A stretch of DNA of 64,000 bases from assembly GCA_964420875.1 (NCBI GenBank), contig CAYQUK010000001.1, positions 9,946 to 73,945 of the forward strand. Direction: 5' to 3'. Under the pieces are notes generated by a model. It did not search any database and was not told the DNA's origin. It saw only the letters and a program-made list of their open reading frames with translations. The DNA comes from an uncultured Candidatus Saccharibacteria bacterium. GTDB lineage: Bacteria > Patescibacteriota > Minisyncoccia > Phycocordibacterales > UBA5272. The position numbers were made by a program, and so were the translations under genes. Position 1 is the stretch's first letter. Every line of letters begins with the position of its first letter. Below are positions 5,389-39,190 of the stretch, in pieces.

Positions 5389-5390
5389 TG

Positions 5391-5698
5391 CTACTTTTGA
5401 TAGGTGCGCGAACCTGGTTTATATCAGGGAGTGAGGAAAGTCCGAACACACAGTTTTGAATTATTCAGAACAAAAGTAGTGGGTAACGCCCACCGTGGGT
5501 GACCATAGCGTTGCGAACAGAGACGAGCCTGTTTAGTCAGGTTGAAACGGCAAAATACGTACTCGTGTGCAAGACCGTGCCGGTCTCGTACCGGAGTCGT
5601 CGCAAATGATCAACATGGTAACATGTTGGCAAGAAAAATACCTATTGGTTTGATAATTCACAAGATCAAACTTTACAGAATTCGGCTTATAAAAGTAG
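5391..5698 (+). ncRNA. rnpB: RNase P RNA (bacterial type A)
   Basis: Conserved P4 strands GAGGAAAGUCCG (approx. 5432-5443) and ACAGAAuuCGGCUUAU (approx. 5675-5690). GGGUAACGCCcACC motif present. 5' ctacttttga pairs with 3' aaaagtag (P1). Begins 2 nt after the stop of the upstream CDS. Confidence 0.8.
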
Positions 5699-5731
5699 AA
5701 AGCCCCACGCCGCAAGGCGTGGGGCTTGTGT
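5699..5731 (+). terminator. Hairpin after rnpB (weak U-tract)
   Basis: gccccacgcc-gcaa-ggcgtggggc followed by ttgtgtt. Confidence 0.4.
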
Positions 5732-5748
5732 TATAATAAGTTTTAATT

Positions 5749-22598: not shown

Positions 22599-22625
22599 TA
22601 CTAGTCGTTAGTATATACTGTCATT

Positions 22626-23684: not shown

Positions 23685-23686
23685 AT

Positions 23687-24895: not shown

Positions 24896-24976
24896 TTTTT
24901 TTGGGGATAAGTTTTGCTCTCATAAGGTGTTTAGTTTTATACTTAGAGTAAGTTTTTATGATCAAGTAATATTGCC

Positions 24977-25576
24977 GTGCAAAAAAATAAAAAACAAATT
25001 AGAGGTTTTACTTTACTTGAGCTGATTGTAGTTATAGCCATTGTGGGTGTCTTGTCTGTTATCATTCTCCCATCATTCACAACAGCATTAGCGAGATCAA
25101 GAGACGGTAGAAAAATATCTGAGTTAGTTGGCATACAAAAGTCTCTCGCCCAGTGGGCTAATAACAATAGCGGCAGATATCCTGCAACATCAACTATGCC
25201 AACAAAGGCCGCAGGTTGCGCAGGGTCTATCACATCTCTTTGTGCACTTGTCACACATAACATAACCACAAAACTACCAGACGGAGCATTTAATGGTAGT
25301 GGTCCTGGTGGATCAGGTACTCTTTATAACTATGTTGGTGTTGCATGTTTTACTGGTGGTCTGTGTCAGTCATATCAATTGTGGGTTGACCTCGAAAAGA
25401 CAAACACCTCACTAGCTAGCGACTCTGACGCATCCGGTACAGCTACCACCACATGGCGCGGCGTTGATTGGACTGCGAGCGGTATGATATTACCTGTTAC
25501 AAACAGTATGGCAAATGGAGAAACTGAAACTTGTACTGGTACTGCAAACACTTGTGTATTTGATTTGCGTCCGTAG
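24977..25576 (+). CDS. pilA: Type IV major pilin (paralogue 1), GTG start
   Basis: Class III signal MQKNKKQIRG|FTLLELIVVIAI with Phe+1/Glu+5. Ser/Thr/Gly-rich variable C-terminal domain with Cys pairs. Confidence 0.8.
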   Translation: MQKNKKQIRGFTLLELIVVIAIVGVLSVIILPSFTTALARSRDGRKISELVGIQKSLAQWANNNSGRYPATSTMPTKAAGCAGSITSLCALVTHNITTKLPDGAFNGSGPGGSGTLYNYVGVACFTGGLCQSYQLWVDLEKTNTSLASDSDASGTATTTWRGVDWTASGMILPVTNSMANGETETCTGTANTCVFDLRP

Positions 25577-25597
25577 TTTATAATGTATTTCAAAAAT

Positions 25598-25630
25598 AAA
25601 ATCTCATAATTTTTTGAGATTTTATTTTGT
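25598..25630 (+). terminator. Probable terminator between the tandem pilin genes
   Basis: aaaatctc-(AT loop)-gagatttt followed by T-run. Confidence 0.45.
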
Positions 25631-25673
25631 ATGTGTATAAGAATGAGTTTATTTTTTTGTTTTATGAGTATAC

Positions 25674-25701
25674 TTGATATTAGTAATCGAAAGATTATAA
25701 A
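25674..25701 (+). promoter_or_regulatory. Putative sigma70-type promoter for pilin paralogue 2
   Basis: TTGATA, 16-nt spacer, TATAAA, about 18 nt upstream of ATG 25719. Confidence 0.35.
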
Positions 25702-25718
25702 TTTATAATTAAAAAAGT

Positions 25719-26330
25719 ATGATTAAAAACAAAACATCACTACGCGGCTTTACTCTCCTAGAGCTTATCGTTGTGATTGCTATTATCGGTGTTCTATCTG
25801 TTATCATCCTCCCATCATTCACAACAGCACTAGCTCGTTCACGTGATGGTAGAAAGATTTCAGAACTTCGTGGTATTCAAGCTGGGTTGGTGCAATTTGC
25901 TCAAAACAATAATGGATTCTATCCTGCAGCAACAGCTATGCCAACACAAACTGCTGGTTGTTCTTCTATAACAGTAGCAACCACATCACTTTGTGCGATA
26001 ATAAATAGCGGTATAGATAATAGACTTCCATCAGGGGTTTATTCAAATAACGCTGTTTATAATTACGTTGGAGTTGCTTGTACAACTGGTACAGGAGGTA
26101 TGTGTTTATCGTATCAGCTTTGGACAAACCTAGAACAAAGTAACGCTGGGCTAACTAGTGACGCAGATGTTACAACATCAAATGCTACAAGTACATACAG
26201 TACAACAACATTGACGACTTCTGGAGTAATAGCTAGTACTACAGCTAATACTTTTGGAGGTATTCAAAATGGATCAACAGAGACATGTAACGGAGGTACA
26301 AATACATGTGTATTTGATCTAGTCCCATAA
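25719..26330 (+). CDS. pilA: Type IV major pilin (paralogue 2)
   Basis: MIKNKTSLRG|FTLLELIVVIAI. First ~55 aa nearly identical to paralogue 1. The C-terminal half is divergent and very Thr/Ser-rich. Confidence 0.8.
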   Translation: MIKNKTSLRGFTLLELIVVIAIIGVLSVIILPSFTTALARSRDGRKISELRGIQAGLVQFAQNNNGFYPAATAMPTQTAGCSSITVATTSLCAIINSGIDNRLPSGVYSNNAVYNYVGVACTTGTGGMCLSYQLWTNLEQSNAGLTSDADVTTSNATSTYSTTTLTTSGVIASTTANTFGGIQNGSTETCNGGTNTCVFDLVP

Positions 26331-26354
26331 TCGTTTCTTAAAAAGAATAACAAC

Positions 26355-27134
26355 GTGAACATATTATTTGCTTTTGTCTTTGGTGCTGCGCTAGGGAGCT
26401 TCGCGAATCTCTGTGCAGACAGACTGCGGGTCAAATCCGTATGGACAGGCAGAAGTGAATGTATGTCATGCGGAAAAAAGCTCTCCCCGGGGGAGCTTTT
26501 TCCCATATTATCATTCCTTTTAATTAGAGGTAAATGTAAATCATGTGGCTCAAAGCTGTCCCCAGTGTATTTATATAGCGAGACACTCTCTGGTGCGTTG
26601 GTTGCTATTGCTTATGTTGTTGCGACGTCTTTGCCATTTACTTTCCTTGCTCAATTAATTATATTTTTAGTTACTTCCTTCGTGATCTGTTTGTCCATGA
26701 TTATCATCATCTATGACATCAGACATACCATTGTCCCTGTTGAGGTGGTCAGTATATTGATAGCGACGGGCTTGTTTTTGACAGCTGTCAGGGCGTTCAT
26801 GTATGGATTCAACGCTTATGATATTTTGTCAGGTGTTATTGTTGCTGCTCCATTTGCAATTCTTTACGCGGTATCAAAGGGTAAGTGGTTGGGTATGGGC
26901 GATATACTGGTTTATGTTGCTTTTGGTTTCATACTTGGGTTACCATTTGGTATCACGATGTTCCTCTATTCTGTATGGTTGGGGGCATTTGTAGCTGTGC
27001 TCCTTATGATATTCCATGGTGATAAATATGGAATGAAAAGTGAAATGCCCTTTACTCCATTTATAATAATTGCAGCTTTATTAGTGTGGTACACTCAAAC
27101 TGATATACTAAATCTGCATGAAATTATTTATTAG
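26355..27134 (+). CDS. pilD: Prepilin peptidase PilD (A24 family, with N-terminal Cys4 Zn motif)
   Basis: CxxC...CxxC (ECMSCGKKL...GKCKSCGSKL), catalytic Asp-containing TM core, 259 aa. Confidence 0.8.
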   Translation: MNILFAFVFGAALGSFANLCADRLRVKSVWTGRSECMSCGKKLSPGELFPILSFLLIRGKCKSCGSKLSPVYLYSETLSGALVAIAYVVATSLPFTFLAQLIIFLVTSFVICLSMIIIIYDIRHTIVPVEVVSILIATGLFLTAVRAFMYGFNAYDILSGVIVAAPFAILYAVSKGKWLGMGDILVYVAFGFILGLPFGITMFLYSVWLGAFVAVLLMIFHGDKYGMKSEMPFTPFIIIAALLVWYTQTDILNLHEIIY

Positions 27135-27789
27135 ATTCAAAAATAGACTTGCCGGATTCTCTCTTGTCGAGATGGTAATATCGATGAGTATTATATCTAT
27201 ACTTTCCATCATTTTGTATGGTAATTATCCATCTATGAATAAATTTGTGAGTTATGCTACTGCAATTAATGACTTTGCTTCTCAAATAAAAGAGGTACAA
27301 ATATATGGGGCCTCCCGTGGAGGTGATACAGCAAAAGGTGATGGTATATACATAGCAACTAGTACACCTTATAACTATTATCTTTTTAATGATGCCATCA
27401 ACTCATCATCTACCACCACAGGTATAGGCACATCAAATCTAAGATGGGATGGTGCGTCTCTAGAGCCAACAACAACAAAAACTTTCCTCAACTCTACATA
27501 CATAACCAGACTATGTTATAACAATTCATTTACTTATGACCCAACTACAGGGACATCTACTGAAAGTGGGGCTTATGTATGTACGATATCTAACATAATG
27601 ATTACATTTGCTCGTCCGAAACTAAATGCAAACATAGCATATGTTACTAGTGGTGGAGCCACCACTACTGTTAACCGAATGTGTTTAGAAATGGGGCAGG
27701 TTGGAGTCAGCACTAGTACTCAGCAGAGATCCATAATAGTAAAGTCATCAGGACAAGTTATAGTACAAAGAGTGAGGTGTACCCCATAA
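27118..27789 (+). CDS. Minor pilin / pseudopilin
   Basis: Prepilin-type N-terminus ...AGFSLVEMVISMSI. Confidence 0.65.
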   Translation: MKLFIRFKNRLAGFSLVEMVISMSIISILSIILYGNYPSMNKFVSYATAINDFASQIKEVQIYGASRGGDTAKGDGIYIATSTPYNYYLFNDAINSSSTTTGIGTSNLRWDGASLEPTTTKTFLNSTYITRLCYNNSFTYDPTTGTSTESGAYVCTISNIMITFARPKLNANIAYVTSGGATTTVNRMCLEMGQVGVSTSTQQRSIIVKSSGQVIVQRVRCTP

Positions 27790-27807
27790 TTGTAGTAATA
27801 TATTTAT

Positions 27808-28536
27808 ATGATCAAGGTTTTATTTAAAAACAAAATAATAAAAGATGAGGTAAGAGGATTTACTTTGGTTGAGCTGATGGTTGCTGTGTCACTGTTTTCT
27901 TTTGTTGCTCTTATGGTTGGTAGTATAGTTTTCAGTGCTAATGCTATTAATGATAGACTGGCAGCCAGTCGTGCTGTGTACGAGTCTATTAATTTAGTAT
28001 TAGACGATATGTCTCGTGAGATATCTCAAGGTACTAAATATCGCTGTTTGTTATCCAATGAATTCATTGTTAATGTGCCAACAGATCTTAATAAAACTAG
28101 AGATTGTGACAACGGTATCTATGGTGTAGCATTCAAGCCATCAGAATATAGCGCATACGCTATTGTTCCTACGCCAGATATAACATATACAAATCCAGTA
28201 TCATCGGTAGGGTATGTTTTAGATAATGGAGCAATAAGGCGTTATCTAGGTTATGTAAATGTTGACGGGTCTAATAATGTTACGGCATCTAACTTTGGTA
28301 GAGGTGTTGCTGAAAACTTTGCTTCAGTGCCAGGGAGAAACGAAGTTATCAGCCCCTCAAATATAACAGTAACAAAATTTTCAATAACAGCCACTAATAC
28401 ATTGTCATATGTAGAGGATAGCAGCAATATAGGGCAGGCATATGTACAAGTTGTGATAGAGGGTCAAACAAATACAAAACCAATAGTGCCATTTTCTGTG
28501 CAGGCGACAATAACTCAACGTGAACCTGAAAATTAA
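27808..28536 (+). CDS. Minor pilin / pseudopilin
   Basis: ...VRGFTLVELMVAVSLF prepilin N-terminus. Confidence 0.65.
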   Translation: MIKVLFKNKIIKDEVRGFTLVELMVAVSLFSFVALMVGSIVFSANAINDRLAASRAVYESINLVLDDMSREISQGTKYRCLLSNEFIVNVPTDLNKTRDCDNGIYGVAFKPSEYSAYAIVPTPDITYTNPVSSVGYVLDNGAIRRYLGYVNVDGSNNVTASNFGRGVAENFASVPGRNEVISPSNITVTKFSITATNTLSYVEDSSNIGQAYVQVVIEGQTNTKPIVPFSVQATITQREPEN

Positions 28537-28539
28537 TAT

Positions 28540-29151
28540 ATGAAAAATATCTTTAAAAACAAAAGAGTGAGAGGATTTGCAATGGTGGAAGCCATGGTTG
28601 CTATTACTATACTTCTTGTTGTTGTTACAGCCCCACTCACTCTCGCATATCAAATAGAAAAGAGATCGAGGATAGCTAGCACCAGAGCCCAAGCTACATA
28701 CCTTGCGAACGAAGGGATAGAGCTTATGATATTTTTTAGAAAGTCTCTGGAGACTTATTGCACTACTTATCCAACTGTGGACGAGTGCGCACAGGGGTCG
28801 TCCGCTGCCACTACTTCTTTTGCTATGTTCTTATCAAAAATGTCTGCAGTTTGTTTAGATACCGGTACGTGTCGTTTTGATAAGACCAGTTTTGATCCAA
28901 ATAATGCATCCTATGCGGATAACCCTACCTGTACACTGCTGTATCGTAACTCTTTTGGTGAGTATGTCTGTAATCAAACAGCAAGTAGTACTAGATTTTC
29001 TAGGTATGTGTCACTGTCTAGGTCTGATAGATGGAAAGATAGATCTGCTGCTAATCAGTGGTACACAGGTGTAAAAATTATCTCCACAGTATGTTATGAC
29101 AATGGTATATGCAATGATAAAATACAATTGACCTCATATGTCTATCAATAA
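28540..29151 (+). CDS. Minor pilin / pseudopilin
   Basis: ...VRGFAMVEAMVAITIL prepilin N-terminus. Confidence 0.65.
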   Translation: MKNIFKNKRVRGFAMVEAMVAITILLVVVTAPLTLAYQIEKRSRIASTRAQATYLANEGIELMIFFRKSLETYCTTYPTVDECAQGSSAATTSFAMFLSKMSAVCLDTGTCRFDKTSFDPNNASYADNPTCTLLYRNSFGEYVCNQTASSTRFSRYVSLSRSDRWKDRSAANQWYTGVKIISTVCYDNGICNDKIQLTSYVYQ

Positions 29152-29758
29152 ATTTAAAAATAAAAACAGAGGTTTTGTTCTTGGCATTGCCATGATAGTT
29201 TTGACTGTGCTACTCACTCTCTCCATATCAATCACAATCATACTGTTGCGCGATCTAAAGGGTAGCAATATTAGCTATGACACCAGAGTGGCTAGTGCTC
29301 TGGCTGATTCGGCATTAATGTGCGCAGAGTCAATTTTTAAGAATTTTAAGAGTAACTCTAATGATAGAAGTCTGTTCCCTATAGATATGTCCGAAGCTCC
29401 AAACTATCATTTTAATACTTCTGGTAAGTTTGCATATGTTGACCCTACTACTGTCGGATGTTTTGATGTTCCTATTTTCCCGGCATCTTTACATGCTGGT
29501 GCGGCGCCGGCCACCGGGACAGTGTCTACGTCAAACTACAGTAGCATTACAACAATAACTTATTCTACTGTAGGGTCGTACTCACAGGGTACCAAAGTCT
29601 GGTCTCAGATAAAAAGAAATGATTTTGCCAGGTCCGCATGTGCTGAAATAGAGATGCACACTACATCTACCGGTGCAGTGCTGATAATAGGACGTGGTAA
29701 GGTCCCTTGCGACTCCACATCTAGGGTAGAGCGTGTGGTAGTAAAAAGATACAATTAA
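29138..29758 (+). CDS. PilX-like minor pilin (no Glu+5)
   Basis: ...NRGFVLGIAMIVLTVLL prepilin-like N-terminus lacking E5. Confidence 0.5.
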   Translation: MSINKFKNKNRGFVLGIAMIVLTVLLTLSISITIILLRDLKGSNISYDTRVASALADSALMCAESIFKNFKSNSNDRSLFPIDMSEAPNYHFNTSGKFAYVDPTTVGCFDVPIFPASLHAGAAPATGTVSTSNYSSITTITYSTVGSYSQGTKVWSQIKRNDFARSACAEIEMHTTSTGAVLIIGRGKVPCDSTSRVERVVVKRYN

Positions 29759-29778: not shown

Positions 29779-31776
29779 ATGGCAGGAGATAGTAATGAAA
29801 TAAAAAGATTGCTGGCATTACGCGCCGAGCTGGATAAACACAGGCATTTGTATCATGTTTTAGACAAGCCTAGTATTAGTGACGAGGCATATGATGGCAT
29901 GATGACAGAGTTGTTAGAGTTGGAAAATAAGTACCCAGAATACAGAGATAAAAATTCTCCAACTACGCGAGTGGGCGGTGATGTGCTAGATAGTTTTAAA
30001 AAAGTAAAACATGAGATTAGACAGTGGAGTTTTGATAATGTTTTTTCATATGAAGAGCTTCGTAATTGGGAAGATAGGAATATAAAAATTTTAGAAAAAG
30101 ATAATATTAAAATTAAACCAAATTATATTTGTGAGCTAAAAATAGATGGTCTAAAAGTGGTTTTGACTTATAAAGCTGGAGTGCTGGTAATGGCAGCAAC
30201 TCGTGGTGATGGTGAAGTGGGGGAGGATGTGACGCACAATGTGCGCACCATCAGGTCTATACCTTTAGAGCTAAGTAAAAAAATAGACATGATAGTTGTC
30301 GGTGAATGCTGGATAAAGAAAAGTGATTTAGAAAAGTTTAATCAACAATTAGTAAAAGATGGGGAGGAAGAGTATGCTAATCCGCGCAACTTGGCGGCAG
30401 GGACACTTCGTCAACTTGACTCATCTGTGGCGGCAAAACGTAATTTACAATTTTTTGCATATGATATAGACAAATGTTCGACAGGTATGAAGCAAACTCA
30501 AAAAGAGGAGTTAGATTTTTTACATGAGATGGGATTTATGGTTAATGATAATTCAAAATTTGCAGACAGTATTGAAGGTGTGCAAAAAATATATGATGCC
30601 TTTGTTGAGAAGAGAAATGATTTCCCGTTTGGGGTGGATGGTATGGTTATAAAAATTAATCAAAGAGAGATTTTTGAAAGTCTTGGCTATACAGCAAAGG
30701 CGCCGCGTGCTGGTATCGCTTACAAGTTCCCTGCAGAGCAGGCTGTGACTGTTGTGGAGGATATTACAGTACAGGTTGGACGTACTGGTGCTATTACACC
30801 AGTCGCACATCTAAAAAAGGTCTTGATAGCTGGCAGCCAGGTCAGTCGAGCTACACTTCATAATCAAGATGAGATAGACAGACTAGATGTGCGCGTTGGT
30901 GACACTGTGATAATACAAAAAGCAGGCGACATCATACCAGAGGTGCTTGAGGTGGTTATGAGTCTGCGCCCCGAGAAAACTAAAAAGTATTCGCTTCCAA
31001 GTGTGTGCCCAGCATGTCAGTCGCAACTCACAAAGCGTGACGACAGCGTGGCGCTTTACTGTTTGAACGCTGAGTGTCCTGCAAAGCATCTCGAGCAGTT
31101 GGTGCACTTTGTTTCTAAAAAGGCTATGAATATTGACGGCTTAGGAGAAAAGATAATATATGAATTTAACGAGCTCGGCCTCATCACTGATATGGCATCA
31201 ATATATGAATTAAAGGTTGAAGACATAAAAGATTTATTTGGATATGGAGAAAAGAGTGCGGAGAATATTATATCCTCTGTGAACATTAGTAAGAATGTAA
31301 CACTTTCAAAGTTTATTTATGCACTCGGCATTATACATATTGGTGAGACTACGGCCAAGCTGTTGGCAAAGCATTATAAAAGTTTTGAGAAGTTTAGAAA
31401 TACAAATGAGAACGAGTTGCTCGAGGTTGACGGTGTTGGTGAGGAGTCTGTAAAAAGCATCTTGTCATATTTTGCTGATAACAAAAACAAAACTTTATTA
31501 GAAAGACTTTTAAAATATATAAAAGTCTCAGATGAGAAAAATGAGAACGTGTCAGAAAAGTTACAGGGTAAAACATTTGTAATAACAGGCACTCTCAGCC
31601 AGTCTCGTGACTATTTTAAAAATGAGATCGAAAGCAATGGTGGTAAGGTCTCGAGCAGTGTGTCTGCAAAAACTGATTATTTGCTTGCAGGCGAAAATGC
31701 TGGGTCAAAGCTCTCTGATGCGACAAGGTTGGGCATTAAAATCCTGGACGAAAACGAATTTAAAAAGTTATTTTAG
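29779..31776 (+). CDS. ligA: NAD-dependent DNA ligase LigA
   Basis: KxDG adenylation motif (ELKIDGLKV). OB, Zn-finger (CPACQSQL...C...C), HhH and BRCT regions. 665 aa. Confidence 0.9.
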   Translation: MAGDSNEIKRLLALRAELDKHRHLYHVLDKPSISDEAYDGMMTELLELENKYPEYRDKNSPTTRVGGDVLDSFKKVKHEIRQWSFDNVFSYEELRNWEDRNIKILEKDNIKIKPNYICELKIDGLKVVLTYKAGVLVMAATRGDGEVGEDVTHNVRTIRSIPLELSKKIDMIVVGECWIKKSDLEKFNQQLVKDGEEEYANPRNLAAGTLRQLDSSVAAKRNLQFFAYDIDKCSTGMKQTQKEELDFLHEMGFMVNDNSKFADSIEGVQKIYDAFVEKRNDFPFGVDGMVIKINQREIFESLGYTAKAPRAGIAYKFPAEQAVTVVEDITVQVGRTGAITPVAHLKKVLIAGSQVSRATLHNQDEIDRLDVRVGDTVIIQKAGDIIPEVLEVVMSLRPEKTKKYSLPSVCPACQSQLTKRDDSVALYCLNAECPAKHLEQLVHFVSKKAMNIDGLGEKIIYEFNELGLITDMASIYELKVEDIKDLFGYGEKSAENIISSVNISKNVTLSKFIYALGIIHIGETTAKLLAKHYKSFEKFRNTNENELLEVDGVGEESVKSILSYFADNKNKTLLERLLKYIKVSDEKNENVSEKLQGKTFVITGTLSQSRDYFKNEIESNGGKVSSSVSAKTDYLLAGENAGSKLSDATRLGIKILDENEFKKLF

Positions 31777-31794
31777 TTGTGATATAATATCCCT

Positions 31795-32085
31795 ATGAAC
31801 AAAGAAGAATTTGCTTATTTGGAGGGGTTGGCAAAGGTTACAATTGATGAGAGTAAGCGCGAGCAGTATGCAAAAGAGATATCTGATATTTTGGCATATG
31901 TAAAAGAGGTGCAAGATGTGGATACTAGTAGTGTGGATGGTACAGTCGTGGCTGATGGTACGCCACATGATGTTTATAAGGGTGACGAAGTGATGTTTGA
32001 CGGTGAGCATAGAGACAAGGCTTTGGCCAATGCCCCAGCAACACAAAACGGATATTATAAAGTATCACAAGTAATCAAACAATAA
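31795..32085 (+). CDS. gatC: Asp/Glu-tRNA(Asn/Gln) amidotransferase subunit C
   Basis: 96 aa. Position directly upstream of gatA. EISDILAYVKEVQDVDT motif. Confidence 0.75.
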   Translation: MNKEEFAYLEGLAKVTIDESKREQYAKEISDILAYVKEVQDVDTSSVDGTVVADGTPHDVYKGDEVMFDGEHRDKALANAPATQNGYYKVSQVIKQ

Positions 32086-32086
32086 T

Positions 32087-33478
32087 ATGAAAGACTCGAT
32101 AATTTTAGGACTTGCAGAAAAAATTAAAAACTCATCAGTACATGATGTGGTATTTGAATATGTAAATGTTATCAAAAGCAAAGACGCTGAGATAAAGGCT
32201 TTGCTCGAGCTTTACAGTGATGAGGACATAGAGGCGCAGATCGCTGTAGCTCAGGCTATGCTCGACGCTGGTAAAGGGACTACGATGACAGGTGTCCCGA
32301 TAGTAATAAAAGACAATATATGTTTTGATGGACACACAGCGAGCGCAGGAAGCAAGATGCTCGAGAATTATCGCGCGACATATGACTCGACAGTAGTAAA
32401 GAAATTAAAAGAAGCTGGAGCGATAATAGTCGGTCGTGCGAACATGGATGAGTTTGCAATGGGTAGCTCAACTGAAAATAGTGCTTATCAAAAGACATTG
32501 AACCCGATAGACAAGTCATGTGTACCAGGTGGGTCATCGGGTGGGTCTGCGGCCGTGGTGGCATATGGTGGTGTGCCTGTGTCGCTCGGATCTGATACAG
32601 GAGGATCAGTGCGTCAGCCAGCATCATTTACCGGGACCGTTGGATTAAAGCCTACATATGGATCAGTGAGCCGTTACGGACTAATCGCAATGGGGTCATC
32701 ATTAGACGTTATAGGAACATTCACAAATACTGTAGCAGACTCAAAAATCATTTTTGATATTATAAGTGGGCAAGATAAAAAAGACGCTACAACTATTACG
32801 GATATTCCTAAAAAAGAATTTAGAAAGAAAATCGGTGTGCCGATGGGATTCATAAATCAAGAAGGAGTGGATGCTGAAATAAAGGCGAATTTTGATAAAG
32901 TTGTACAAGGTTTAAAGACCTCTGGTTATGAAGTTGTAGATATTAATATTAAGAATATAGAAAAAGCTTTGGCTGTGTATTATATTTTGATGCCAGCAGA
33001 AGTTAGCAGCAACCTAGCTAGATTTGAAGGTGTGAGATATGGTAAGCATGTTGATGGCAGGTCACCAACAGAGAGTATGATGCTAAGTCGTGGGGCAGGA
33101 CTGGGTCCCGAGCCCACACGCAGATCACTACTCGGCGCATATGTGCTCTCTAGCGGATACTATGATGCGTATTATTACAAAGCTGTATCAGTGCGTGATA
33201 TGTTGAAAAAAGAATTTGTAAAAACATTTTCTGATGTAGATGTTATATTGACACCAACATCACCTATTTTACCTTGGAAGTTTGGAGATAAACATGATCC
33301 ACTATCAATGTATTTGGCTGACATATTTACAGTGCCAGCTAACATTGTAGGTGTCCCGGGTATCAGTGTCCCATCAGGTAAATCAGAATCAGGGCTACCA
33401 TTTGGAGTGCAGGGGTTAGCAGCATGGGGACAAGAGGAGCACTTATTCACTATCGGAGAGGATATCGAAAGGTTATAA
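32087..33478 (+). CDS. gatA: Asp/Glu-tRNA(Asn/Gln) amidotransferase subunit A (amidase)
   Basis: Amidase signature GGSSGGSAAVVA with a Ser-cisSer-Lys triad context. 463 aa. Confidence 0.85.
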   Translation: MKDSIILGLAEKIKNSSVHDVVFEYVNVIKSKDAEIKALLELYSDEDIEAQIAVAQAMLDAGKGTTMTGVPIVIKDNICFDGHTASAGSKMLENYRATYDSTVVKKLKEAGAIIVGRANMDEFAMGSSTENSAYQKTLNPIDKSCVPGGSSGGSAAVVAYGGVPVSLGSDTGGSVRQPASFTGTVGLKPTYGSVSRYGLIAMGSSLDVIGTFTNTVADSKIIFDIISGQDKKDATTITDIPKKEFRKKIGVPMGFINQEGVDAEIKANFDKVVQGLKTSGYEVVDINIKNIEKALAVYYILMPAEVSSNLARFEGVRYGKHVDGRSPTESMMLSRGAGLGPEPTRRSLLGAYVLSSGYYDAYYYKAVSVRDMLKKEFVKTFSDVDVILTPTSPILPWKFGDKHDPLSMYLADIFTVPANIVGVPGISVPSGKSESGLPFGVQGLAAWGQEEHLFTIGEDIERL

Positions 33479-33485: not shown

Positions 33486-34871
33486 GTGTATTCTTTTAGC
33501 TTAGACTATATTTTTAATCGCGTATATGATGGACTTCTTTGGCTAAAATATATTTGGTATTTTTGGATTAAGAGAATGTCTCCAGAAGATTATCTTTTGA
33601 ATGTACAAGGCGAAGAGTGGGATGGTTTACGGGATAGAGCGTGGTTGGCAACTTCTACCAGTGAGACAGGTGGGTCTGGTTTAGGGGTGCTTGATAATTT
33701 TGGTATCAACACAACTCGTGATACAGATGGTGACGGTATACCTGATATACGTGATTCAAAGACTTTTGATGCCAACAACCTAACAACAGAAAAAATAAGA
33801 GAGCTTTTTGGAGATCAATTATCATGGACAGACCATGTGCGCATGTTTTTCGGTATGGACCCTAGAGATTTTGATGGTGACGGGATACCGGACAGTGTAG
33901 AGTTGGATAAAGGCATGGATGCTAATAGTCCGGACACTGATCATGATGGTGTTCTGGATGGAGACGAGATATTCAAAGGTCTTGACCCTCTTAACAAGGA
34001 TACAGATGGTGACGGTGTAATAGATGGGCGTGATGCATACCCAGCAGACAGTTATAGATCTGTAGAATACGATGACATAGACACTGATGGTGACGGTATA
34101 GGTGATAAATATGAAAAGTTAATAGGGTCTAATATTAACAGTGTTGACACTGATAGTGATGGGATAATGGACAATTATGATTTTTATCCAAATGACGCAA
34201 ACAACACATCAAATGTCACAGATACCTTGCATGCTGTAGTTTCAAACAGTACTAGCGGTTTTACATTGTCTATACAAAATAACTTTTTGTCATTCCTAAC
34301 AGACGTTTTGACAATACTCTCGCTATTCATGTTGCCGCTGTTTATATTTATATTCTATTTGTGGTTAATGAGAATGCGTGCAGCTGTGGAGCATTATGAG
34401 CATATGTTCCAGGGTGCCATAGGTTATGACGATGTATACGGTAAACATGCAAAACACGATACTGATGACAGTCACCATGACAATACAAAAACTGAAGTGA
34501 TACATGCACATAACCCTAGAGTCGTAGCGCATGAGATAGACCCACCAAAAGAGTCTGAGTATGTAAAACATCCACGCTGGGCAATGGTAGAGGACTACAT
34601 GTCTAGTGACCACGATGCATTGTGGAGAATAGGCATACTTGAGGCTGACAACCTATTACATGATGTTATGCGTACCGCAGGGTATCCAGGACAGGACCTC
34701 GGCGAAATGCTAAAAGAGGCCAACTTTAGATCTATTGACCTGGCATGGGATGCACATAAAATACGCAATAAAATAGCTCATGAGGGCATGCAATACACAT
34801 TAACAGAAAGAGAGGCCAGGAGAGCTTTTGCTATGTATGAGGCTGTATTTAAAGAGTTGAAAGTTATCTAA
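33486..34871 (+). CDS. Membrane protein with thrombospondin-type-3-like Ca-binding repeats and a C-terminal HEPN-like domain
   Basis: At least five DTDGDGIPD/DTDHDGVLDGDE/DTDGDGVIDGRD/DTDGDGIGD/DTDSDGIMD repeats. A hydrophobic segment near the N-terminus and a clear TM at LTDVLTILSLFMLPLFIFIFYLWLM. C-terminal ~150 aa contains HKIRNKIAHEG, i.e. an R-N-xxx-H HEPN catalytic-type motif. The true start may be the internal ATG (MSPEDY...). Confidence 0.55.
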   Translation: MYSFSLDYIFNRVYDGLLWLKYIWYFWIKRMSPEDYLLNVQGEEWDGLRDRAWLATSTSETGGSGLGVLDNFGINTTRDTDGDGIPDIRDSKTFDANNLTTEKIRELFGDQLSWTDHVRMFFGMDPRDFDGDGIPDSVELDKGMDANSPDTDHDGVLDGDEIFKGLDPLNKDTDGDGVIDGRDAYPADSYRSVEYDDIDTDGDGIGDKYEKLIGSNINSVDTDSDGIMDNYDFYPNDANNTSNVTDTLHAVVSNSTSGFTLSIQNNFLSFLTDVLTILSLFMLPLFIFIFYLWLMRMRAAVEHYEHMFQGAIGYDDVYGKHAKHDTDDSHHDNTKTEVIHAHNPRVVAHEIDPPKESEYVKHPRWAMVEDYMSSDHDALWRIGILEADNLLHDVMRTAGYPGQDLGEMLKEANFRSIDLAWDAHKIRNKIAHEGMQYTLTEREARRAFAMYEAVFKELKVI

Positions 34872-34899: not shown

Positions 34900-34970
34900 C
34901 GCGGGGTAGAGTAGAGGTAGCTCGGGAGGCTCATAACCTCCAGGCGGACGTTCGATTCGTCCCTCCGCAA
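34900..34970 (+). tRNA. Initiator tRNA-fMet (anticodon CAU)
   Basis: cgcgggg acceptor with C1xA72 mismatch. A11:U24 in the D-stem. Anticodon loop ctCATaa. T-arm ggacg-ttcgatt-cgtcc. CCA not encoded. Confidence 0.7.
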
Positions 34971-34981
34971 CAAGAATAGAC

Positions 34982-35010
34982 AAAGGCCGTCGCGTAGCGA
35001 CGGCCTTTGT
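34982..35010 (+). terminator. Hairpin terminator after tRNA-fMet
   Basis: aaaggccgtcgc-gta-gcgacggccttt then tgtctt. Confidence 0.6.
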
Positions 35011-35050
35011 CTTGAAAATATCTCAGTTTTATGTTATTTTACTATGTATC

Positions 35051-35124
35051 GTCGGCATAGCTCAGTTGGTTAGAGCGTGGGACTCATAAGCCCAAGGTCG
35101 GTGGATCGTTCCCACCTGCCGACA
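35051..35124 (+). tRNA. tRNA with anticodon CAU (elongator Met or lysidine-modified Ile2) with an atypical T-loop
   Basis: gtcggca|ta|gctc-agttggtta-gagc|g|tggga-ctCATaa-gccca|...|ggtgg-atcgttc-ccacc|tgccgac|a. Perfect canonical D-arm. T-loop begins with A instead of T54. 31:39 is an A·G mismatch. Confidence 0.6.
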
Positions 35125-35182
35125 CAAATAGACTGTTAGGAATAGCCATATTCAAGCTTCGCTTTGATGTTATACTTTCTAT

Positions 35183-36289
35183 ATGTTAAGTAAAATAAAA
35201 CAAGCGATAAGTAATAGTGAGATATTAACTGGCAACAGGAAAACTCGCGTAGCGATAAATGGTTTTGGTCGTATTGGGCGCGCATTTTTAAAGGTCGCTA
35301 TAGAGAGAAATGAATTGAATGTTGTAGCTGTGAACGATCTCGGTGACATACACAACATGGCATACCTGCTCAAATATGACACAGTATACGGTATCAGTGA
35401 CTTTGATGTTGATGTAGAGGAGGTGAGTGAGATAGAGAAATATCTCATAATCAAAACAGATGTAGACCACAAGATAAAATTTGTACAGCAAAAAGATCCC
35501 ACATTGTTACCTTGGAAAGATCTAAATATTGATATTGTTATCGAGAGTACAGGGCTCTTCACCTCATGGGATAAAGCAAAAGTTCATATCGCCAGCGGAG
35601 CAAAACGCGTAGTTATATCAGCGCCTGCAAAGGCTGGGGAGGATGCATCTGTAAATGGTGAGACAGTCTTGCTCGGTGTAAATGAAAACAAGTTATCATC
35701 TTGCGATATATCTTCTAATGCATCATGCACTACTAATGCATCGTCACCAGTCATAGCGATACTGGATGAAGCGATAGGAATTGAGAAGGCGATACTCTCG
35801 ACTACGCACGCATATACAGCATCACAATCAATAGTCGACGGTCCAAATAAAAAAGATTATCGTGAAGGTCGCGCTGGAGCCCAAAATATTGTCCCATCAT
35901 CAACAGGTGCTGCTATAGCAGTCACAAAGGCATTCACTCAGCTGTCGGGTAAGTTCGACGGTATATCTATTCGTGTGCCTGTGCCAGCGGGATCAATAGC
36001 TGATATCACATTCATTGCAAAGCGCAACACCACAGCAGAGGAGGTTAATGATATATTGCGTAAAGCTGCACGGACAGATAGATGGAAAATGATTTTTGAT
36101 GCAACAGATGAGGAGTTGGTGAGTAGTGACATACAGGGCAACATTCATGCATCAATAGCAGACCTTAAGATGACACGTGTAGTAGATGGTAATCTAGTAA
36201 AAGTTCTGGCTTGGTATGATAATGAGATGGGGTATACTCACACACTAGTTGAACACGCTGTTAAGGCTGGTAAACTTATAACTGATTAA
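35183..36289 (+). CDS. gap: Glyceraldehyde-3-phosphate dehydrogenase
   Basis: INGFGRIGR NAD-binding motif, ASCTTNA catalytic Cys. 368 aa. Confidence 0.9.
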   Translation: MLSKIKQAISNSEILTGNRKTRVAINGFGRIGRAFLKVAIERNELNVVAVNDLGDIHNMAYLLKYDTVYGISDFDVDVEEVSEIEKYLIIKTDVDHKIKFVQQKDPTLLPWKDLNIDIVIESTGLFTSWDKAKVHIASGAKRVVISAPAKAGEDASVNGETVLLGVNENKLSSCDISSNASCTTNASSPVIAILDEAIGIEKAILSTTHAYTASQSIVDGPNKKDYREGRAGAQNIVPSSTGAAIAVTKAFTQLSGKFDGISIRVPVPAGSIADITFIAKRNTTAEEVNDILRKAARTDRWKMIFDATDEELVSSDIQGNIHASIADLKMTRVVDGNLVKVLAWYDNEMGYTHTLVEHAVKAGKLITD

Positions 36290-36290
36290 T

Positions 36291-36746
36291 ATGAAAATAT
36301 ATCTCGCAACAGATCATGCAGGTTTTGAATTAAAAGAGATGGTCAAGAGCTATTTAGAGACTAACTATACTGATTGTGAGATAGAGGACTGTGGAGCATA
36401 TGTTTACGATGAGCTAGATGACTACCCTATATATATCAAACAGGCTCGTGAGGCTTTGGCTTATGATATAGAAAATGGACTGGACTCTAGAGCTATAGTG
36501 TTCGGAGGGTCTGGTGAAGGTGAGGCGATAGTTATGAATAGACAAAAAGGCGTCAGGTGTACGACGTACTATGGTACTAATTTAGATATTGTTAGGCTTG
36601 GGCGTGAACACAATGACGCTAATGCCATATCTTTTGGTTATAGATTTGTAGAAGAAGAGGAGTGCTACAAGGCTGTTGATATGTTTTTGAGTACAGATTT
36701 TGAAGGAGGTCGTCACGTAGCAAGGGTGGATGAAATAGATAACTAA
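36291..36746 (+). CDS. rpiB: Ribose-5-phosphate isomerase B
   Basis: MKIYLATDHAGFELKE N-terminus. 151 aa. Confidence 0.8.
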   Translation: MKIYLATDHAGFELKEMVKSYLETNYTDCEIEDCGAYVYDELDDYPIYIKQAREALAYDIENGLDSRAIVFGGSGEGEAIVMNRQKGVRCTTYYGTNLDIVRLGREHNDANAISFGYRFVEEEECYKAVDMFLSTDFEGGRHVARVDEIDN

Positions 36747-36749
36747 TAT

Positions 36750-37358
36750 ATGAAAATAATGATAACTCCAGCAATACTTGAAAACAGTTTTGATAATGTT
36801 TGTTTTCAATTAGATAGATATGTTGAGGTGGCAAAACGTGTTCAGATTGATCTCGTAAAATGGAAACCAACTGGCACTGAGGAGTTGCCACATTGGGATA
36901 TATATGATTTTGAATTTGACTTACTTGGGCAAAGCGACATGGAGACTTTAGAAAAAGTAAAAGACATGGGCGCGGCTTTTGTGGTCTGGCATTTGAATGA
37001 TAAAGTAACAGCAAAAGAGGCCCATGAATACTGCAGAGAATATGAGATGCAAATGGCTATTTGTGGCGATGTCGATAGCGTCTTAAAAGATATAGACAAT
37101 TGTGACTATGTGCAGCTGATGGGTATAGATCATGTCGGTTTCCAAGGGCAAGCATTCAGAGAGGGGGTGATAGATGATATTAAAAAGGTCTGTCAAAACT
37201 CAGATAAGAATATTCAAATAGATGGAGCGATGAATGAAGATACAATAAAGAGATGCCTTGATGTTGGCGCTACACAATTTGCTGTAGGTAGCGCCCTTAA
37301 GAATACGTTAGATGTTGTATCCACATATCGCAAACTCAAAAACATAGTACACTCATAA
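36750..37358 (+). CDS. rpe: Ribulose-phosphate 3-epimerase-like TIM-barrel protein
   Basis: LMGIDHVGFQGQAF resembles Rpe VNPGFGGQ. 202 aa. Pentose-phosphate context. Confidence 0.5.
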   Translation: MKIMITPAILENSFDNVCFQLDRYVEVAKRVQIDLVKWKPTGTEELPHWDIYDFEFDLLGQSDMETLEKVKDMGAAFVVWHLNDKVTAKEAHEYCREYEMQMAICGDVDSVLKDIDNCDYVQLMGIDHVGFQGQAFREGVIDDIKKVCQNSDKNIQIDGAMNEDTIKRCLDVGATQFAVGSALKNTLDVVSTYRKLKNIVHS

Positions 37359-37359
37359 G

Positions 37360-38214
37360 ATGAGTTTGACTGATATTGAAATACATAAACTAGAGGCACG
37401 AGCAAAAGAGATCAGAGTTTCAATCATTGAGATGTTGCTTGAGGCAAAAAGTGGGCACACAGCTGGACCACTAGGCATGACTGATGTGTTTACGGCTCTT
37501 TATTTTAAAGTATTGAAACATGATCCAAAGGCTTCAGACTGGATACATCGTGACAGATTGATACTTTCAAATGGCCATATCGCTCCTGTATTGTATGCGA
37601 CCATGGCTCATGCGGGATATTTTGCTGTCTCAGAGTTGAAAACCTTAAGAAAATTTGGTTCCAGATTGCAAGGTCACCCACACAGAGAATTCTTGCCATC
37701 TCTCGAAACCTCCAGTGGACCACTCGGTTGCGGACTGTCTCAAGCTATAGGTATGAGTCTGGCAGATAAAATGTTGGGAGGTTTACCAAAGAACTTTTAT
37801 TGCCTCATGGGGGATGGAGAGATGAATGAGGGTAATGTTTGGGAGGCGATGCTTAACCTATCTAAATATAATCTTACAAATATAATAACTATTATTGACA
37901 GAAATGGTATACAAATAGATGGTAGAACAGAAGATGTGTTGCCACTCGAGTCATTATCCGAAAAGCTAAAGGCTTTTAATTTTAATGTTTTAGAAATAGA
38001 TGGACACAATATGATGGAAATAGTAAATGCTATAAACATAGCAAAGAGTAACAGCATACAACCGACTATGATAGTAGCTCACACTGTTCCTGGTCGCGGT
38101 TACAAAGACATAGAGGGTGATTATCATTGGCATGGCAAAGCGCCAAATAAAGAGGAGGCGAGAGCTGCATTGCGAGAGATCAGAACTATGGGAGGGAAAA
38201 TTAATTTTGAATAA
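37360..38214 (+). CDS. Transketolase, N-terminal (TPP-binding) subunit of a split enzyme
   Basis: SGHTAGPLGMTD and GDGEMNEG motifs. 284 aa. Confidence 0.8.
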   Translation: MSLTDIEIHKLEARAKEIRVSIIEMLLEAKSGHTAGPLGMTDVFTALYFKVLKHDPKASDWIHRDRLILSNGHIAPVLYATMAHAGYFAVSELKTLRKFGSRLQGHPHREFLPSLETSSGPLGCGLSQAIGMSLADKMLGGLPKNFYCLMGDGEMNEGNVWEAMLNLSKYNLTNIITIIDRNGIQIDGRTEDVLPLESLSEKLKAFNFNVLEIDGHNMMEIVNAINIAKSNSIQPTMIVAHTVPGRGYKDIEGDYHWHGKAPNKEEARAALREIRTMGGKINFE

Positions 38215-38215
38215 A

Positions 38216-39190
38216 ATGCTAAATAAAAATCTATTTACAACGGAACAAGAAATGAAGGCTACGCGTGAAGGTTTTGGTTTGGCGTTGTGTGACATTGGAG
38301 ATGAAGATAATAAAGTTGTTGCCCTTTGTGCTGATCTGACCGAGAGTGTGCAAATGCATTTGTTCAAAGAAAAGTTTGCATCTAGATTCGTAGAGGTTGG
38401 CATCACCGAGCAGAATATGGCCGCTATGGCTAGCGGTATGGCAGCAATGGGAACCATGCCATTTATAGCCAGCTATGCAATGTTTAATCCAGGACGCAAT
38501 TGGGAACAGATCAGAACAACTATTGCTTATAATAATCAAAAAGTTGTTATTGTGGGGGCTCATGCTGGATTATCAGTCGGGCCAGACGGTGGGACTCATC
38601 AAGCTGTTGAAGATATAGCTTTGATGCGAGTTATGCCAAATATGACAGTGTTGTCACCATGCGACTCTAGAGAGGCGTATCTGATGACTCGTCTCGCTCA
38701 CGATATAGATGGCCCAGTATATATCAGACTAGCAAGAGAAAAGTCACCTGTTATATTTTCTCCAGAATATAAAAAGATAGATATTAAAAAGCCAGAGATA
38801 TTGTTCGTCTCCCCAGAGCCTCAGGCAAAAAAAGTCTGCATATTTGCAACTGGGCCGATAATATACGAAGCATTACTCGCTGCTCGTGAGCTGGAGAAAA
38901 AAGACATACAGGTTGCTGTGGTAAATTTATCTGTTATAAAGCCATTGCCAGATGAGGCGATAGTTAGATTTGCATCGCAGTATAAAAATATCATTACTTT
39001 GGAAGAACATCAGAAAGTGGGAGGAATGGGAAGTGCTGTGTGTGAGCTCTTGGCAGATCGTCACCCGACAAAAGTCATACGCATGGGTATAGATAATAGA
39101 TTTGGTCAGTCTGGAGTATCTGCAGAGCTGTACAAAGAATACAGCATTTCAAAAGATGATATAATCAAAACATGTTTGGAAAATATTTAA
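38216..39190 (+). CDS. Transketolase, C-terminal (pyrimidine-binding/C-domain) subunit
   Basis: Start reset to ATG 38216 (MLNKNLF...), 1 nt after the upstream stop. The tabulated ORF began inside the N-subunit gene. Confidence 0.75.
   Translation: MLNKNLFTTEQEMKATREGFGLALCDIGDEDNKVVALCADLTESVQMHLFKEKFASRFVEVGITEQNMAAMASGMAAMGTMPFIASYAMFNPGRNWEQIRTTIAYNNQKVVIVGAHAGLSVGPDGGTHQAVEDIALMRVMPNMTVLSPCDSREAYLMTRLAHDIDGPVYIRLAREKSPVIFSPEYKKIDIKKPEILFVSPEPQAKKVCIFATGPIIYEALLAARELEKKDIQVAVVNLSVIKPLPDEAIVRFASQYKNIITLEEHQKVGGMGSAVCELLADRHPTKVIRMGIDNRFGQSGVSAELYKEYSISKDDIIKTCLENI

Follow-up and report, generated by a model that had tools for sequence, protein, structure and literature searches.

A 64,000-nucleotide stretch of DNA, referred to below as the window, was analysed around a gene that encodes a 461-residue protein and whose GTG start codon lies 7 nt past the gatA stop (table 1). 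The assigned start is backed by the N-terminal sequence MYSxS(I/L)DY, which is kept in 20 relatives. The window is housekeeping chromosome of uniform GC content, its only ORFs of more than 1,000 residues being rpoB and rpoC, with a type IV pilus cluster a short way upstream of the gene.

Table 1. Features of the locus and of the encoded protein, with positions in the window.
Feature	Residues	Position	Strand	Remarks
ligA		29779-31776	+	conserved upstream context (ligA to gatA, 29779-33478)
gatC		31795-32085	+	conserved upstream context
gatA		32087-33478	+	conserved upstream context
Whole gene		33486-34871	+	GTG start, TAA stop 34869-34871; homologues known
Conserved N-terminal module	1-53	33486-33644	+	alignment of 21 sequences
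Six TSP3-like DxDxDG repeats, Ca-binding type	79-232	33720-34181	+	predicted extracytoplasmic; 24 related genomes
TM helix	267-296	34284-34373	+	hydropathy, alignment, structure model
His-rich linker	297-356	34374-34553	+	predicted cytoplasmic; alignment, structure model
HEPN domain	360-461	34563-34868	+	all-alpha bundle
LEAD, with candidate auxiliary acidic residues	E386/D388	34638-34649	+	alignments
RNKIAH, Rx4H motif of the predicted active site	R427, N428, H432	34764-34781	+	alignments
tRNA-Met(CAT)		34900-34971	+	C1xA72 mismatch, initiator-like
16-bp GC-rich palindromic hairpin		34978-35012		between the two tRNA-Met genes
tRNA-Met(CAT), second		35051-35125	+	pair spans 34900-35125

The N-terminal module has the consensus MYSxSxDYIFNRVYDxLLWxKYxWxF...Y...WDGLRDRxW, with S3, D7, Y8, F10, Y14, L18, F26, Y36, G47, L48 and R51 invariant in the 21 aligned sequences. 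It contains a 23-residue helix (aa 6-28) that was modelled with confidence (pLDDT ~90) and is amphipathic at first (hydrophobic moment 0.62 for aa 6-17), then moderately hydrophobic. The mean hydrophobicity was 0.54 for aa 16-29, compared with 0.90 for the true TM helix, and the segment may either cross the membrane as a weak first TM helix or lie at its interface. Searches outside the family for fusions of this module to other output domains gave no candidates with the single sequence and just five short fragments with a profile.

An earlier note, made from the sequence alone, had counted at least five DxDxDG repeats; six were found, at aa 79, 128, 150, 172, 197 and 221, in the context typical of bacterial TSP3 (D-T-D-x-D-G-x-x-D-x-x-E/D...G-x-D/N-P). 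Three to six copies are retained in 24 related species genomes, so the repeats are not a chance occurrence. Matches to Pfam TSP_3 (E=8.4e-5, 22.6 bits) and to TSP3_bac (E=0.0033, 17.7 bits) both fell below the cut-off of 25 bits, and the relative P0032 scored 62.8 bits with TSP3_bac. The OmpA-family protein in PDB entry 5wtl matched aa 127-243 (E=1.6e-5) and CglD matched the repeats (E=2.2e-7, local); the region came out with low confidence in the structure model. Downstream of the repeats lies one strong hydrophobic segment, as the note had claimed, with Kyte-Doolittle values of up to 2.59; it was modelled as a continuous helix (aa 258-308), and a conserved juxtamembrane motif, SIQN(P)xLxF with N265 invariant, stands in front of it. 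The following linker, with 9 His in 60 residues, is poorly conserved; it opens with a conserved HYEH(H/M)F, past which the structure model has low confidence. The C-terminal domain, put at ~150 residues in the note, was narrowed to a conserved part of ~100 residues by assignment of aa 297-356 to this linker.

Since the sole TM helix between them separates the repeats from the HEPN domain, the two modules lie on opposite sides of the membrane, in agreement with the layout first proposed. Lys and Arg residues averaged 3.0 on the HEPN side of the helix and 1.26 on the other (n=294 members), a bias that by the positive-inside rule would place the HEPN domain in the cytoplasm. The N-terminal region of ~260 residues is acidic and carries no classical signal peptide, which counts against the proposed crossing of the membrane.

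The C-terminal domain is an all-alpha, up-down helical bundle of HEPN type, the fold on which the first reading of the gene had been staked. The sequence HKIRNKIAHEG, singled out in that reading as a match to the RNxxxH signature, is present, and RNxxxH was found in all 95 first-round homologues and in 234 of the 235 members of a wider set, which was scanned over a 60-residue stretch. The single exception, P0169, is extended at its C-terminus, which could displace the motif from the scanned stretch. The R, N and H of RNKIAH are invariant in three alignments (A1, A2 and A3), a polar residue follows the R, and the motif sits inside an invariant AWDAHK(I/V)RNxIAHEG. Across 37 diverse domains the invariant positions (alignment numbering) were E39, D41, W74, H77, R80, N81, I83, A84, H85 and G87, and the family-specific signature was AWDAHK(V/I)RNxIAHEG together with WR(L/I)(A/G)ILEAD. 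An acidic residue upstream of the motif, typically in Ex3[KR], and a polar residue after the R are features of HEPN active sites (PMC3710099). In the present family D388 is invariant and E386 nearly so (fully in the closer sets A1 and A2), both of them in the long helix that precedes the motif; their context is not Ex3[KR], and from the alignments both are candidates for the auxiliary acidic residues of the site.

Scans of the full protein with Pfam, NCBIfam and PADLOC returned no model for the C-terminal domain. In the comparison with HEPN family models suggested in the earlier note, no curated HEPN model rose above threshold for any of 37 members, and the sub-threshold Pfam matches were concentrated on HEPN families, namely HEPN_Swt1 (16/37 members, best 0.042; P0138 in a separate scan, 0.0054), RiboL-PSP (8/37), Hypoth_Ymh (5/37) and DUF4145 (3/37, best E=4.3e-4). 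No HEPN chain came up when the PDB was searched by sequence, either with the protein or with a profile of the domain, the sole match being that of the TSP3 part to 5wtl. Foldseek against the PDB gave no match at E<=0.001 (best 0.25). HepT toxins, Csm6, AbiA and LsoA were among the best structural matches.

The region before the TM helix varies across the family, and consists of TSP3 repeats in this clade, of three to eight bacterial SH3 or GW repeats elsewhere, and of near nothing in most members. The median length is 218 residues, and 191 of 235 members have 260 residues or fewer and no sizeable region before the helix. Where SH3_3 or GW repeats are present, they stand between a charged, Lys/Glu-rich N-terminal tail with a first TM helix and a second TM helix followed by the HEPN domain. 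SH3 and GW repeats are known wall-binding modules. The HEPN domain is the slow-evolving part of the protein (mean column identity 56%). Because most members essentially lack an ectodomain, sensing by a large outside domain is neither ancestral nor general, and outside sensing as a core function, as the note had it, was not upheld. Since the surface module is mostly absent and the HEPN R, N and H are invariant, selection acts on the cytoplasmic domain.

The family, with clusters defined at 50% identity, comprised 3,014, 2,097 and 764 representatives at E<=1e-3, 1e-10 and 1e-30, respectively, and of the 150 best matches listed nearly all have the domain at the C-terminal end or close to it. Relatives were found in at least 588 species genomes; all named ones are Patescibacteria (CPR) and fall in the Parcubacteria group. 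Phage, plasmid and IMG/VR collections contained no relative, and literature searches on this HEPN family in CPR/Patescibacteria turned up nothing relevant.

The gene immediately follows ligA-gatC-gatA, in the same orientation, in 85 of 86 loci, with a median gap of 22 nt after gatA; this order is fixed although GatA is just ~50% identical, and Pfam annotation of the neighbours agrees with gatA upstream. At the remaining locus (L018) the gene is separated from its usual neighbours by a block of ORFs on the opposite strand, of which two show DPPY-type DNA-methyltransferase motifs recognized by eye; the block has the appearance of an insertion and not of another native context. No gatB was detected in the window or in the 86 loci by tblastn with an approximate B. 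subtilis GatB query, a rather weak negative; GatB Pfam domains were likewise absent from three annotated loci, and the downstream genes identified in the window are others. The gene is usually followed by a tRNA-Met/Met/Asp cluster, with a tRNA-Met within 1.5 kb downstream in 57 of 71 related loci and within 500 nt in 46 of them, and no downstream protein family was common to more than 11 of 83 loci. The arrangement of ligA, gatCA, the gene and the tRNA genes may simply be inherited gene order, and operon position is no proof of functional linkage.

With moderate confidence, these data are best explained by a chromosomal, vertically inherited, membrane-tethered HEPN protein specific to Patescibacteria, which is most likely an RNase and carries an accessory surface module. 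Its core consists of the short N-terminal motif, the TM helix and the C-terminal HEPN domain with an intact R-N-x3-H. Its most likely role is that of a metal-independent endoribonuclease that would cleave RNA at the inner surface of the membrane. If it resembles other HEPN RNases, two HEPN domains would have to pair face to face for activity, and the membrane anchor and linker would control this pairing. The region before the TM helix would be an interchangeable accessory, the probable role of which is to anchor or cluster the protein at the envelope or at a zone of host contact, and which may modulate the predicted activity. The gene is proposed to be expressed as the last cistron of ligA-gatC-gatA, beside the tRNA-Met/Met/Asp cluster, and such a position would point to housekeeping or translation-linked RNA processing or turnover rather than to defence.

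HEPN RNases are typical of toxin-antitoxin and abortive-infection systems and of CRISPR effectors (PMC3710099), and the earlier note had accordingly considered a transmembrane abortive-infection system. A membrane HEPN toxin that is held in check and, once freed by phage infection or stress, kills the cell or arrests it would be in keeping with those precedents and with the toxins and effectors among the best structural matches, and is nevertheless highly improbable here. The housekeeping-operon position is fixed across deep divergence, and a neighbouring antitoxin-like gene, for which the note had advised a search, was not found: no such partner is conserved beside the gene in 83 loci, and NTP_transf_2/MNT was absent from the neighbours in three annotated loci. 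A PADLOC scan gave no match, the family is missing from the phage, plasmid and IMG/VR collections, and the slow evolution of the nuclease domain is the opposite of that of fast-evolving conflict toxins. The gene resembles a core gene more than a suicide system directed against phages. A polymorphic toxin, with a secreted C-terminal HEPN domain and an immunity gene, was also considered and rejected: the HEPN domain is the part that is conserved, it is put on the inside by the Lys/Arg bias, and the gene is not followed by any immunity-like gene. There is similarly very little chance that the protein is a surface adhesin or envelope anchor, with TSP3 repeats binding wall or host in a Ca-dependent manner and the HEPN fold serving as a structural anchor or nucleotide-binding module; TSP3, SH3 and GW are typical surface-binding modules and the pilus cluster is close by, but the surface module is missing from most of the family and it is the HEPN domain with its R, N and H that is invariant.

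Readings that give the HEPN domain a different or a more tightly controlled role were weighed in the same way. That the protein is a pore or scaffold like Csx28, whose non-cutting HEPN ring under the membrane serves as a gate for ions or small molecules or as a dock for RNA or for protein partners such as the GatCAB/tRNA machinery, is quite unlikely. The minimal members (~185-230 aa) share the layout of Csx28, which is an octameric pore with face-to-back HEPN domains, and members read by eye show a Y-(S/L)-x-(I/V/L)-R sequence where the TM helix enters the cytoplasm. The Csx28 motif, however, is divergent and Csx28 depends on Cas13b, whereas the motif of this family is canonical, with R-N-x3-H and acidic residues upstream of it, and invariant, in the pattern of catalytic HEPN domains, and no cas13 was found in the window. 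A signal-regulated RNase analogous to Ire1 or RNase L, in which the ectodomain senses the envelope, calcium or host contact and dimerization triggers an RNA cleavage that throttles translation, is somewhat less improbable, though still unlikely; its proposed substrate is possibly tRNA. The opposite-side architecture, the ligand- or wall-binding type of the ectodomains, the translation-related neighbours (gatCA and an initiator-like tRNA) and an earlier proposal of the same model for other TM-HEPN groups (PMC3710099, section 15) all favour it. Against these stand the scarcity of ectodomains in the family, the free swapping of the ectodomain beside a constant HEPN domain, which an anchoring accessory would fit equally, and the lack of a conserved signalling partner nearby. 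It is unlikely that a core, single-copy, membrane-tethered HEPN RNase, in the usual slot of gatB after gatC-gatA and beside the initiator-tRNA cluster, couples the state of the surface or host contact, by way of swappable ectodomains, to translation through cleavage of tRNA or mRNA at the membrane; if true, bacteria would have in it a housekeeping equivalent of Ire1/RNase L and not a conflict system.

To our knowledge, bacterial HEPN RNases come almost only from conflict systems, namely toxin-antitoxin and abortive-infection systems and the CRISPR effectors Cas13, Csm6 and Csx1. The present family, with thousands of sequence clusters, has the behaviour of a core gene in a very large radiation that is mostly uncultured. 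If an active RNase, the protein would be a lineage-specific part of RNA metabolism in minimal-genome bacteria, a candidate counterpart in function to the membrane-bound RNase Y or RNase E, and a tractable case of surface modules joined to a cytoplasmic nuclease. A family model is merited, as none of the curated libraries examined covers the family and thousands of 'hypothetical proteins' would be annotated by it.

Within the HEPN superfamily (Pfam clan CL0291) the nearest sequence families are HEPN_Swt1, DUF4145 and RiboL-PSP-HEPN, all of them short of threshold. The repeats resemble those of TSP3_bac proteins (OmpA-family 5wtl, CglD and MtsD) in the DxDxDGxxDxxE/D...G-x-D/N-P pattern; there, the repeats are accompanied by OmpA-like or adhesin modules and not by a HEPN domain, and the repeats in the window are a clade-specific insert below the Pfam cut-off. 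HepT-MntA (HEPN-MNT) toxin-antitoxin pairs have an adjacent MNT nucleotidyltransferase, whereas the window protein has no MNT gene next to it, is membrane-anchored and occupies a fixed chromosomal position. The architecture had been described in the note as unrecognized, and this was true in part: neither this family nor the combination of TSP3 and HEPN was found in the libraries and literature examined, but a paper of 2013 (PMC3710099, section 15) had already described bacterial HEPN proteins fused to TM segments and put forward the Ire1-like idea, and Csx28 is built alike. The groups of 2013, from Proteobacteria and Planctomycetes, comprise DUF4145 with a WP-signature TM, Abi2/Swt1 HEPN behind a TM helix and an alpha-helical N-terminal domain, and HEPN-2TM-Zn-ribbon (PMC3710099). 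[quoted passage not shown] By their descriptions they are set apart from it, the present family having no WP signature in the TM helix, no Zn-ribbon, an N-terminal motif of its own, TSP3, SH3 or GW ectodomains and a fixed housekeeping operon. The WP signature is absent from the TM helix in the window (FLSFLTDVLTILSLFMLPLFIFIFYLWLMR), where an LP occurs that is not conserved, and alignment A2 has no conserved W-P. Csx28 has a cytoplasmic, four-helix HEPN-like C-terminal domain behind an N-terminal TM helix (10.1101/2021.11.02.466367), the layout of the minimal family members; it is a type VI-B2 CRISPR accessory encoded next to cas13b, whereas the gene in the window is flanked by gatA and tRNA genes. 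Csx28 exemplifies those proteins that have a HEPN fold with an R/H motif yet are no nucleases, which counts against the RNase reading here. The KEN domains of Ire1 and RNase L, and C6orf70, offer a functional analogy only, in that a dimerization-activated HEPN RNase and a sensor or anchor lie on opposite sides of a membrane; the present family is bacterial, belongs to a different HEPN subfamily and has neither a kinase or pseudokinase nor ankyrin repeats.

The GTG start of the studied gene was supported by the N-terminus of its product, which is strongly conserved in relatives as MYSxS(I/L)DY. Six DxDxDG motifs (aa 79, 128, 150, 172, 197 and 221) were found in the usual context of bacterial thrombospondin-type-3 (TSP3) repeats, as the earlier note had described. 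Pfam TSP_3 (E 8.4e-5, 22.6 bits) fell just under its 25-bit cut-off and TSP3_bac (E 0.0033) just under threshold; the TSP3 proteins CglD and MtsD were matched locally in NCBIfam, and aa 127-243 matched 5wtl, a TSP3-containing OmpA-family structure (E 1.6e-5). The single strong TM helix claimed earlier was recovered as one strongly hydrophobic stretch at aa ~267-296, and the HKIRNKIAHEG segment holds R427-N428-x3-H432, the RNxxxH signature read there before.

Homologue searches were performed using the TM-plus-C-terminal part of the protein as query. All 95 homologues, none of them a named protein, carried RNxxxH, and those few with a source name were Patescibacteria. When 37 diverse C-terminal domains were aligned (A1), columns E39, D41, L44, G55, F67, A73, W74, H77, R80, N81, I83, A84, H85 and G87 were invariant; residues E386, D388, W421, H424, R427, N428 and H432 of the protein are among them. 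None of the curated sequence models reached threshold on the C-terminal domain. Scanning A1 member by member gave sub-threshold matches throughout, mostly to HEPN families: HEPN_Swt1 (16 of 37 members), RiboL-PSP-HEPN (8), Hypoth_Ymh (5), DUF4145 (3, best 4.3e-4) and pEK499_p136 (2). With A1 as input, AlphaFold2 gave a confident, all-helical model of the domain (pLDDT 91.2, pTM 0.82; helices 16-25, 30-51, 58-64, 70-89 and 94-110). Structural matches of this model were the HepT toxins 5yep (9.2), 8xdj (9.0) and 7ae2 (8.1), a kanamycin nucleotidyltransferase chain (6nlt, 8.6), Csm6 (8.3), Csx1-Crn2 (8.0) and the sacsin HEPN domain (8.0), with Roquin, AbiA, LsoA and Las1 ranked lower. Foldseek matches were weak (best E 0.25), the top ones being the HEPN proteins 1wty, 2hsb and HepS. 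The all-helical model, the matches to HEPN structures and the R-N-x3-H motif bear out the earlier assignment of the C-terminal domain to HEPN by predicted fold and motif. Judged by sequence, it forms a separate family.

The repeats and the HEPN domain are predicted to lie on opposite sides of the membrane, as proposed before, because the only strong TM helix sits between them. Among 294 members, the 15 residues flanking the TM helix held a mean of 3.0 K+R on the HEPN side versus 1.26 on the other, with the bias toward the HEPN side in 74% of members and reversed in 14%; the HEPN domain was therefore placed in the cytoplasm. Elsewhere in the family, proteins begin with a charged tail rich in Lys and Glu and an evident TM1; next come 3-8 repeats, then another TM helix and, last, the HEPN domain. 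SH3/GW-like tandem repeats (3-8 between the two TM helices, consensus G..G.V..GP....G.RYWYVDF..G.DGWV.E..L) replace TSP3 in members P0136, P0138, P0149, P0166, P0192, P0199, P0211, P0219, P0220 and P0228. Those of P0149 matched bacterial SH3_3 (E 6.6e-11) and those of P0220 matched GW, both over cut-off; SH3 and GW domains are extracytoplasmic wall-binding modules, which agrees with a HEPN-inside orientation. Instead of such a TM1, the clade of the window has a highly conserved 53-aa N-terminal module, in which residues 6-28 form a confident helix, amphipathic in its first half and moderately hydrophobic in its second. This helix may be interfacial rather than membrane-spanning, because the N-terminal motif sits after a true TM1 in some related loci (L057, L067, L072 and L077). 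Export of the acidic 260-aa N-terminal part may use the helix as a weak signal anchor, or N-tail translocation. In the studied protein, the cytoplasmic linker that joins the TM helix to the HEPN domain (aa 297-356) is His-rich, with 9 His in 60 aa, and opens with a conserved HYEH(H/M)F. His-rich linkers are common to the TSP3 clade, and Lys/Glu-rich ones take their place in other branches; metal binding by the His-rich linker is possible.

A profile search of 1.84 billion representative proteins returned 3,014 family representatives at E<=1e-3, 2,097 at <=1e-10 and 764 at <=1e-30, and almost all of the best 150 of the 3,014 matches had the HEPN domain at, or close to, their C-terminal end. Relatives occurred in at least 588 genomes when one genome per species was scanned; those named among the matches listed were Paceibacterota, Nomura-, Kaiser-, Taylor- and Zambryskibacteria and the Parcubacteria group. 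Locus L007 is related to the window and nearly identical to it (97%). Median member length was 218 aa (<=260 aa in 191 of 235), with two or more TSP3 motifs in only 4 and SH3-like repeats in 14 of the 235. The TSP3 clade of the window (455-540 aa, 3-6 repeats) accounted for 24 of the best 80 genome loci. The TSP3 module was therefore regarded as an addition, particular to this clade, to a minimal core made up of the N-terminal motif, the TM helix and the HEPN domain.

The gene immediately upstream, on the same strand, was gatA (Pfam Amidase) in 85 of 86 loci, mostly with gatC and ligA ahead of it, even though GatA and LigA were only ~50% and ~45% identical to the window's proteins. The gap from the gatA stop to the family gene had a median of 22 nt (<=30 nt in 49 and <=100 nt in 74 of 82 loci). 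gatB normally completes gatCAB. A search with an approximate GatB query gave no match in the 64-kb window, nor up to 8 kb from the gene in any of the 86 related loci; the absence of gatB was backed by Pfam annotation of three loci and by the downstream genes identified in the window. The membrane HEPN gene sits in the slot where gatB normally comes next. The sole locus without gatA upstream, L018, has three opposite-strand ORFs inserted directly before the gene (3133-6468), two of which (249 and 431 aa) show, on visual inspection, DPPY-type DNA-methyltransferase motifs, the third (404 aa) being unknown; this looks like a restriction-modification or mobile insertion. In L001 (717-kb contig, 2030-5987) ligA and gatA are each broken into several short called genes, which look like assembly frameshift errors, not biology; downstream of its HEPN gene there are two genes of PF05635 (23S rRNA intervening-sequence protein).

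No conserved protein gene was found downstream, the most widespread family occurring in 11 of 83 loci. Of 71 loci, 46 had a tRNA-Met(CAT) no more than 500 nt downstream and 57 had one no more than 1.5 kb downstream; another tRNA-Met as well as tRNA-Asp and tRNA-Thr often came next, on either strand. The Met/Met/Asp(/Thr/Thr) cluster is kept in most relatives (L007-L085), in either orientation. In the window, ligA is immediately preceded by a type IV pilus cluster that looks complete, and in loci L002 and L004 it likewise comes after N_methyl pilin-like genes. The remaining window, of even GC content, is housekeeping chromosome (rpoB/C, lepA, murJ, aminoacyl-tRNA synthetases, tgt, pentose-phosphate genes). 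It includes a pentose-phosphate/glycolysis block with gap, rpiB, a short ribulose-phosphate-epimerase-like gene and a split transketolase, and one long ORF lacking a Pfam match in an otherwise well-annotatable housekeeping region.

Features of the window around the studied gene
Feature	Position	Remarks
ORF, 643 aa	15761-17692	no Pfam match at E<=1e-8
Type IV pilus cluster	20841-29758	
pilB-like ATPase	20841-22598	pilus cluster
pilT-like	22626-23684	pilus cluster
pilC-like	23687-24895	pilus cluster
N-methyl pilin-like genes (5)	24977-25576, 25719-26330, 27118-27789, 27808-28536, 28540-29151	
Prepilin peptidase	26355-27134	pilus cluster
gatC-gatA operon	31795-33478	without gatB
Studied gene	33486..34871 (+)	461 aa, GTG start 7 nt past stop of preceding gene
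His-rich linker	34374-34553	within studied gene
tRNA-Met(CAT)	34900-34971	72 nt, C1xA72 mismatch, initiator-like by eye
GC-rich perfect palindromic hairpin	34978-35012	16 bp, between the two tRNA-Met, no clear T-tract
tRNA-Met(CAT)	35051-35125	
Pentose-phosphate/glycolysis block	35183-39190	
Transketolase, N-terminal half	37360-38214	ORF calls of the halves overlap ~98 nt
Transketolase, C-terminal half	38117-39190	

We infer that the studied protein is a membrane-tethered HEPN endoribonuclease, its RNase activity and substrate being predicted and its activity probably governed by pairing of HEPN domains. In catalytically active HEPN domains, R is followed by a polar residue and an acidic position lies upstream (PMC3710099), and the family motif is like them in both. 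An Ire1-like signal-regulated RNase is a rival reading of the same layout, as is a Csx28-like pore or scaffold; in Csx28, a TM helix and a HEPN-like domain form an octameric pore and the motif is not catalytic (10.1101/2021.11.02.466367). A mainly adhesive role is a further rival and would put the weight on the ectodomain. The alignments indicate that selection clearly acts on the cytoplasmic HEPN domain, the outside part being exchangeable or missing, since mean column identity in the HEPN domain is 56%, R, N and H are invariant and the outside part varies. Within the endoribonuclease reading, the TSP3 repeats would be an accessory module for the envelope or host surface.

The earlier proposal of an abortive-infection or toxin-antitoxin effector was not supported. 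The gene holds a fixed operon position with no partner gene, a PADLOC scan of the studied protein gave no match, and no relatives were found in phage records, plasmids or IMG/VR contigs. These four findings speak against such an effector; they favour a core function that is inherited vertically.

TM-fused bacterial HEPN domains were catalogued in 2013 in three groups, for which RNA processing at the inner membrane face upon surface stimuli was proposed (PMC3710099, section 15). No paper or library entry on the present family was found in Pfam, NCBIfam or the CPR/Patescibacteria literature; it is a new, large, unannotated family whose superfamily and architectural theme are both known. Its function here is predicted; specialists would be surprised by a HEPN protein that has a core rather than a conflict role in CPR bacteria and is associated with gatCA and tRNA genes, should it prove to be an RNase with a part in translation. 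The family shares its general layout with the 2013 groups and Csx28 but differs from them in its canonical, invariant motif, its own N-terminal module, its TSP3, SH3 or GW ectodomains, its restriction to Patescibacteria and its housekeeping operon context.
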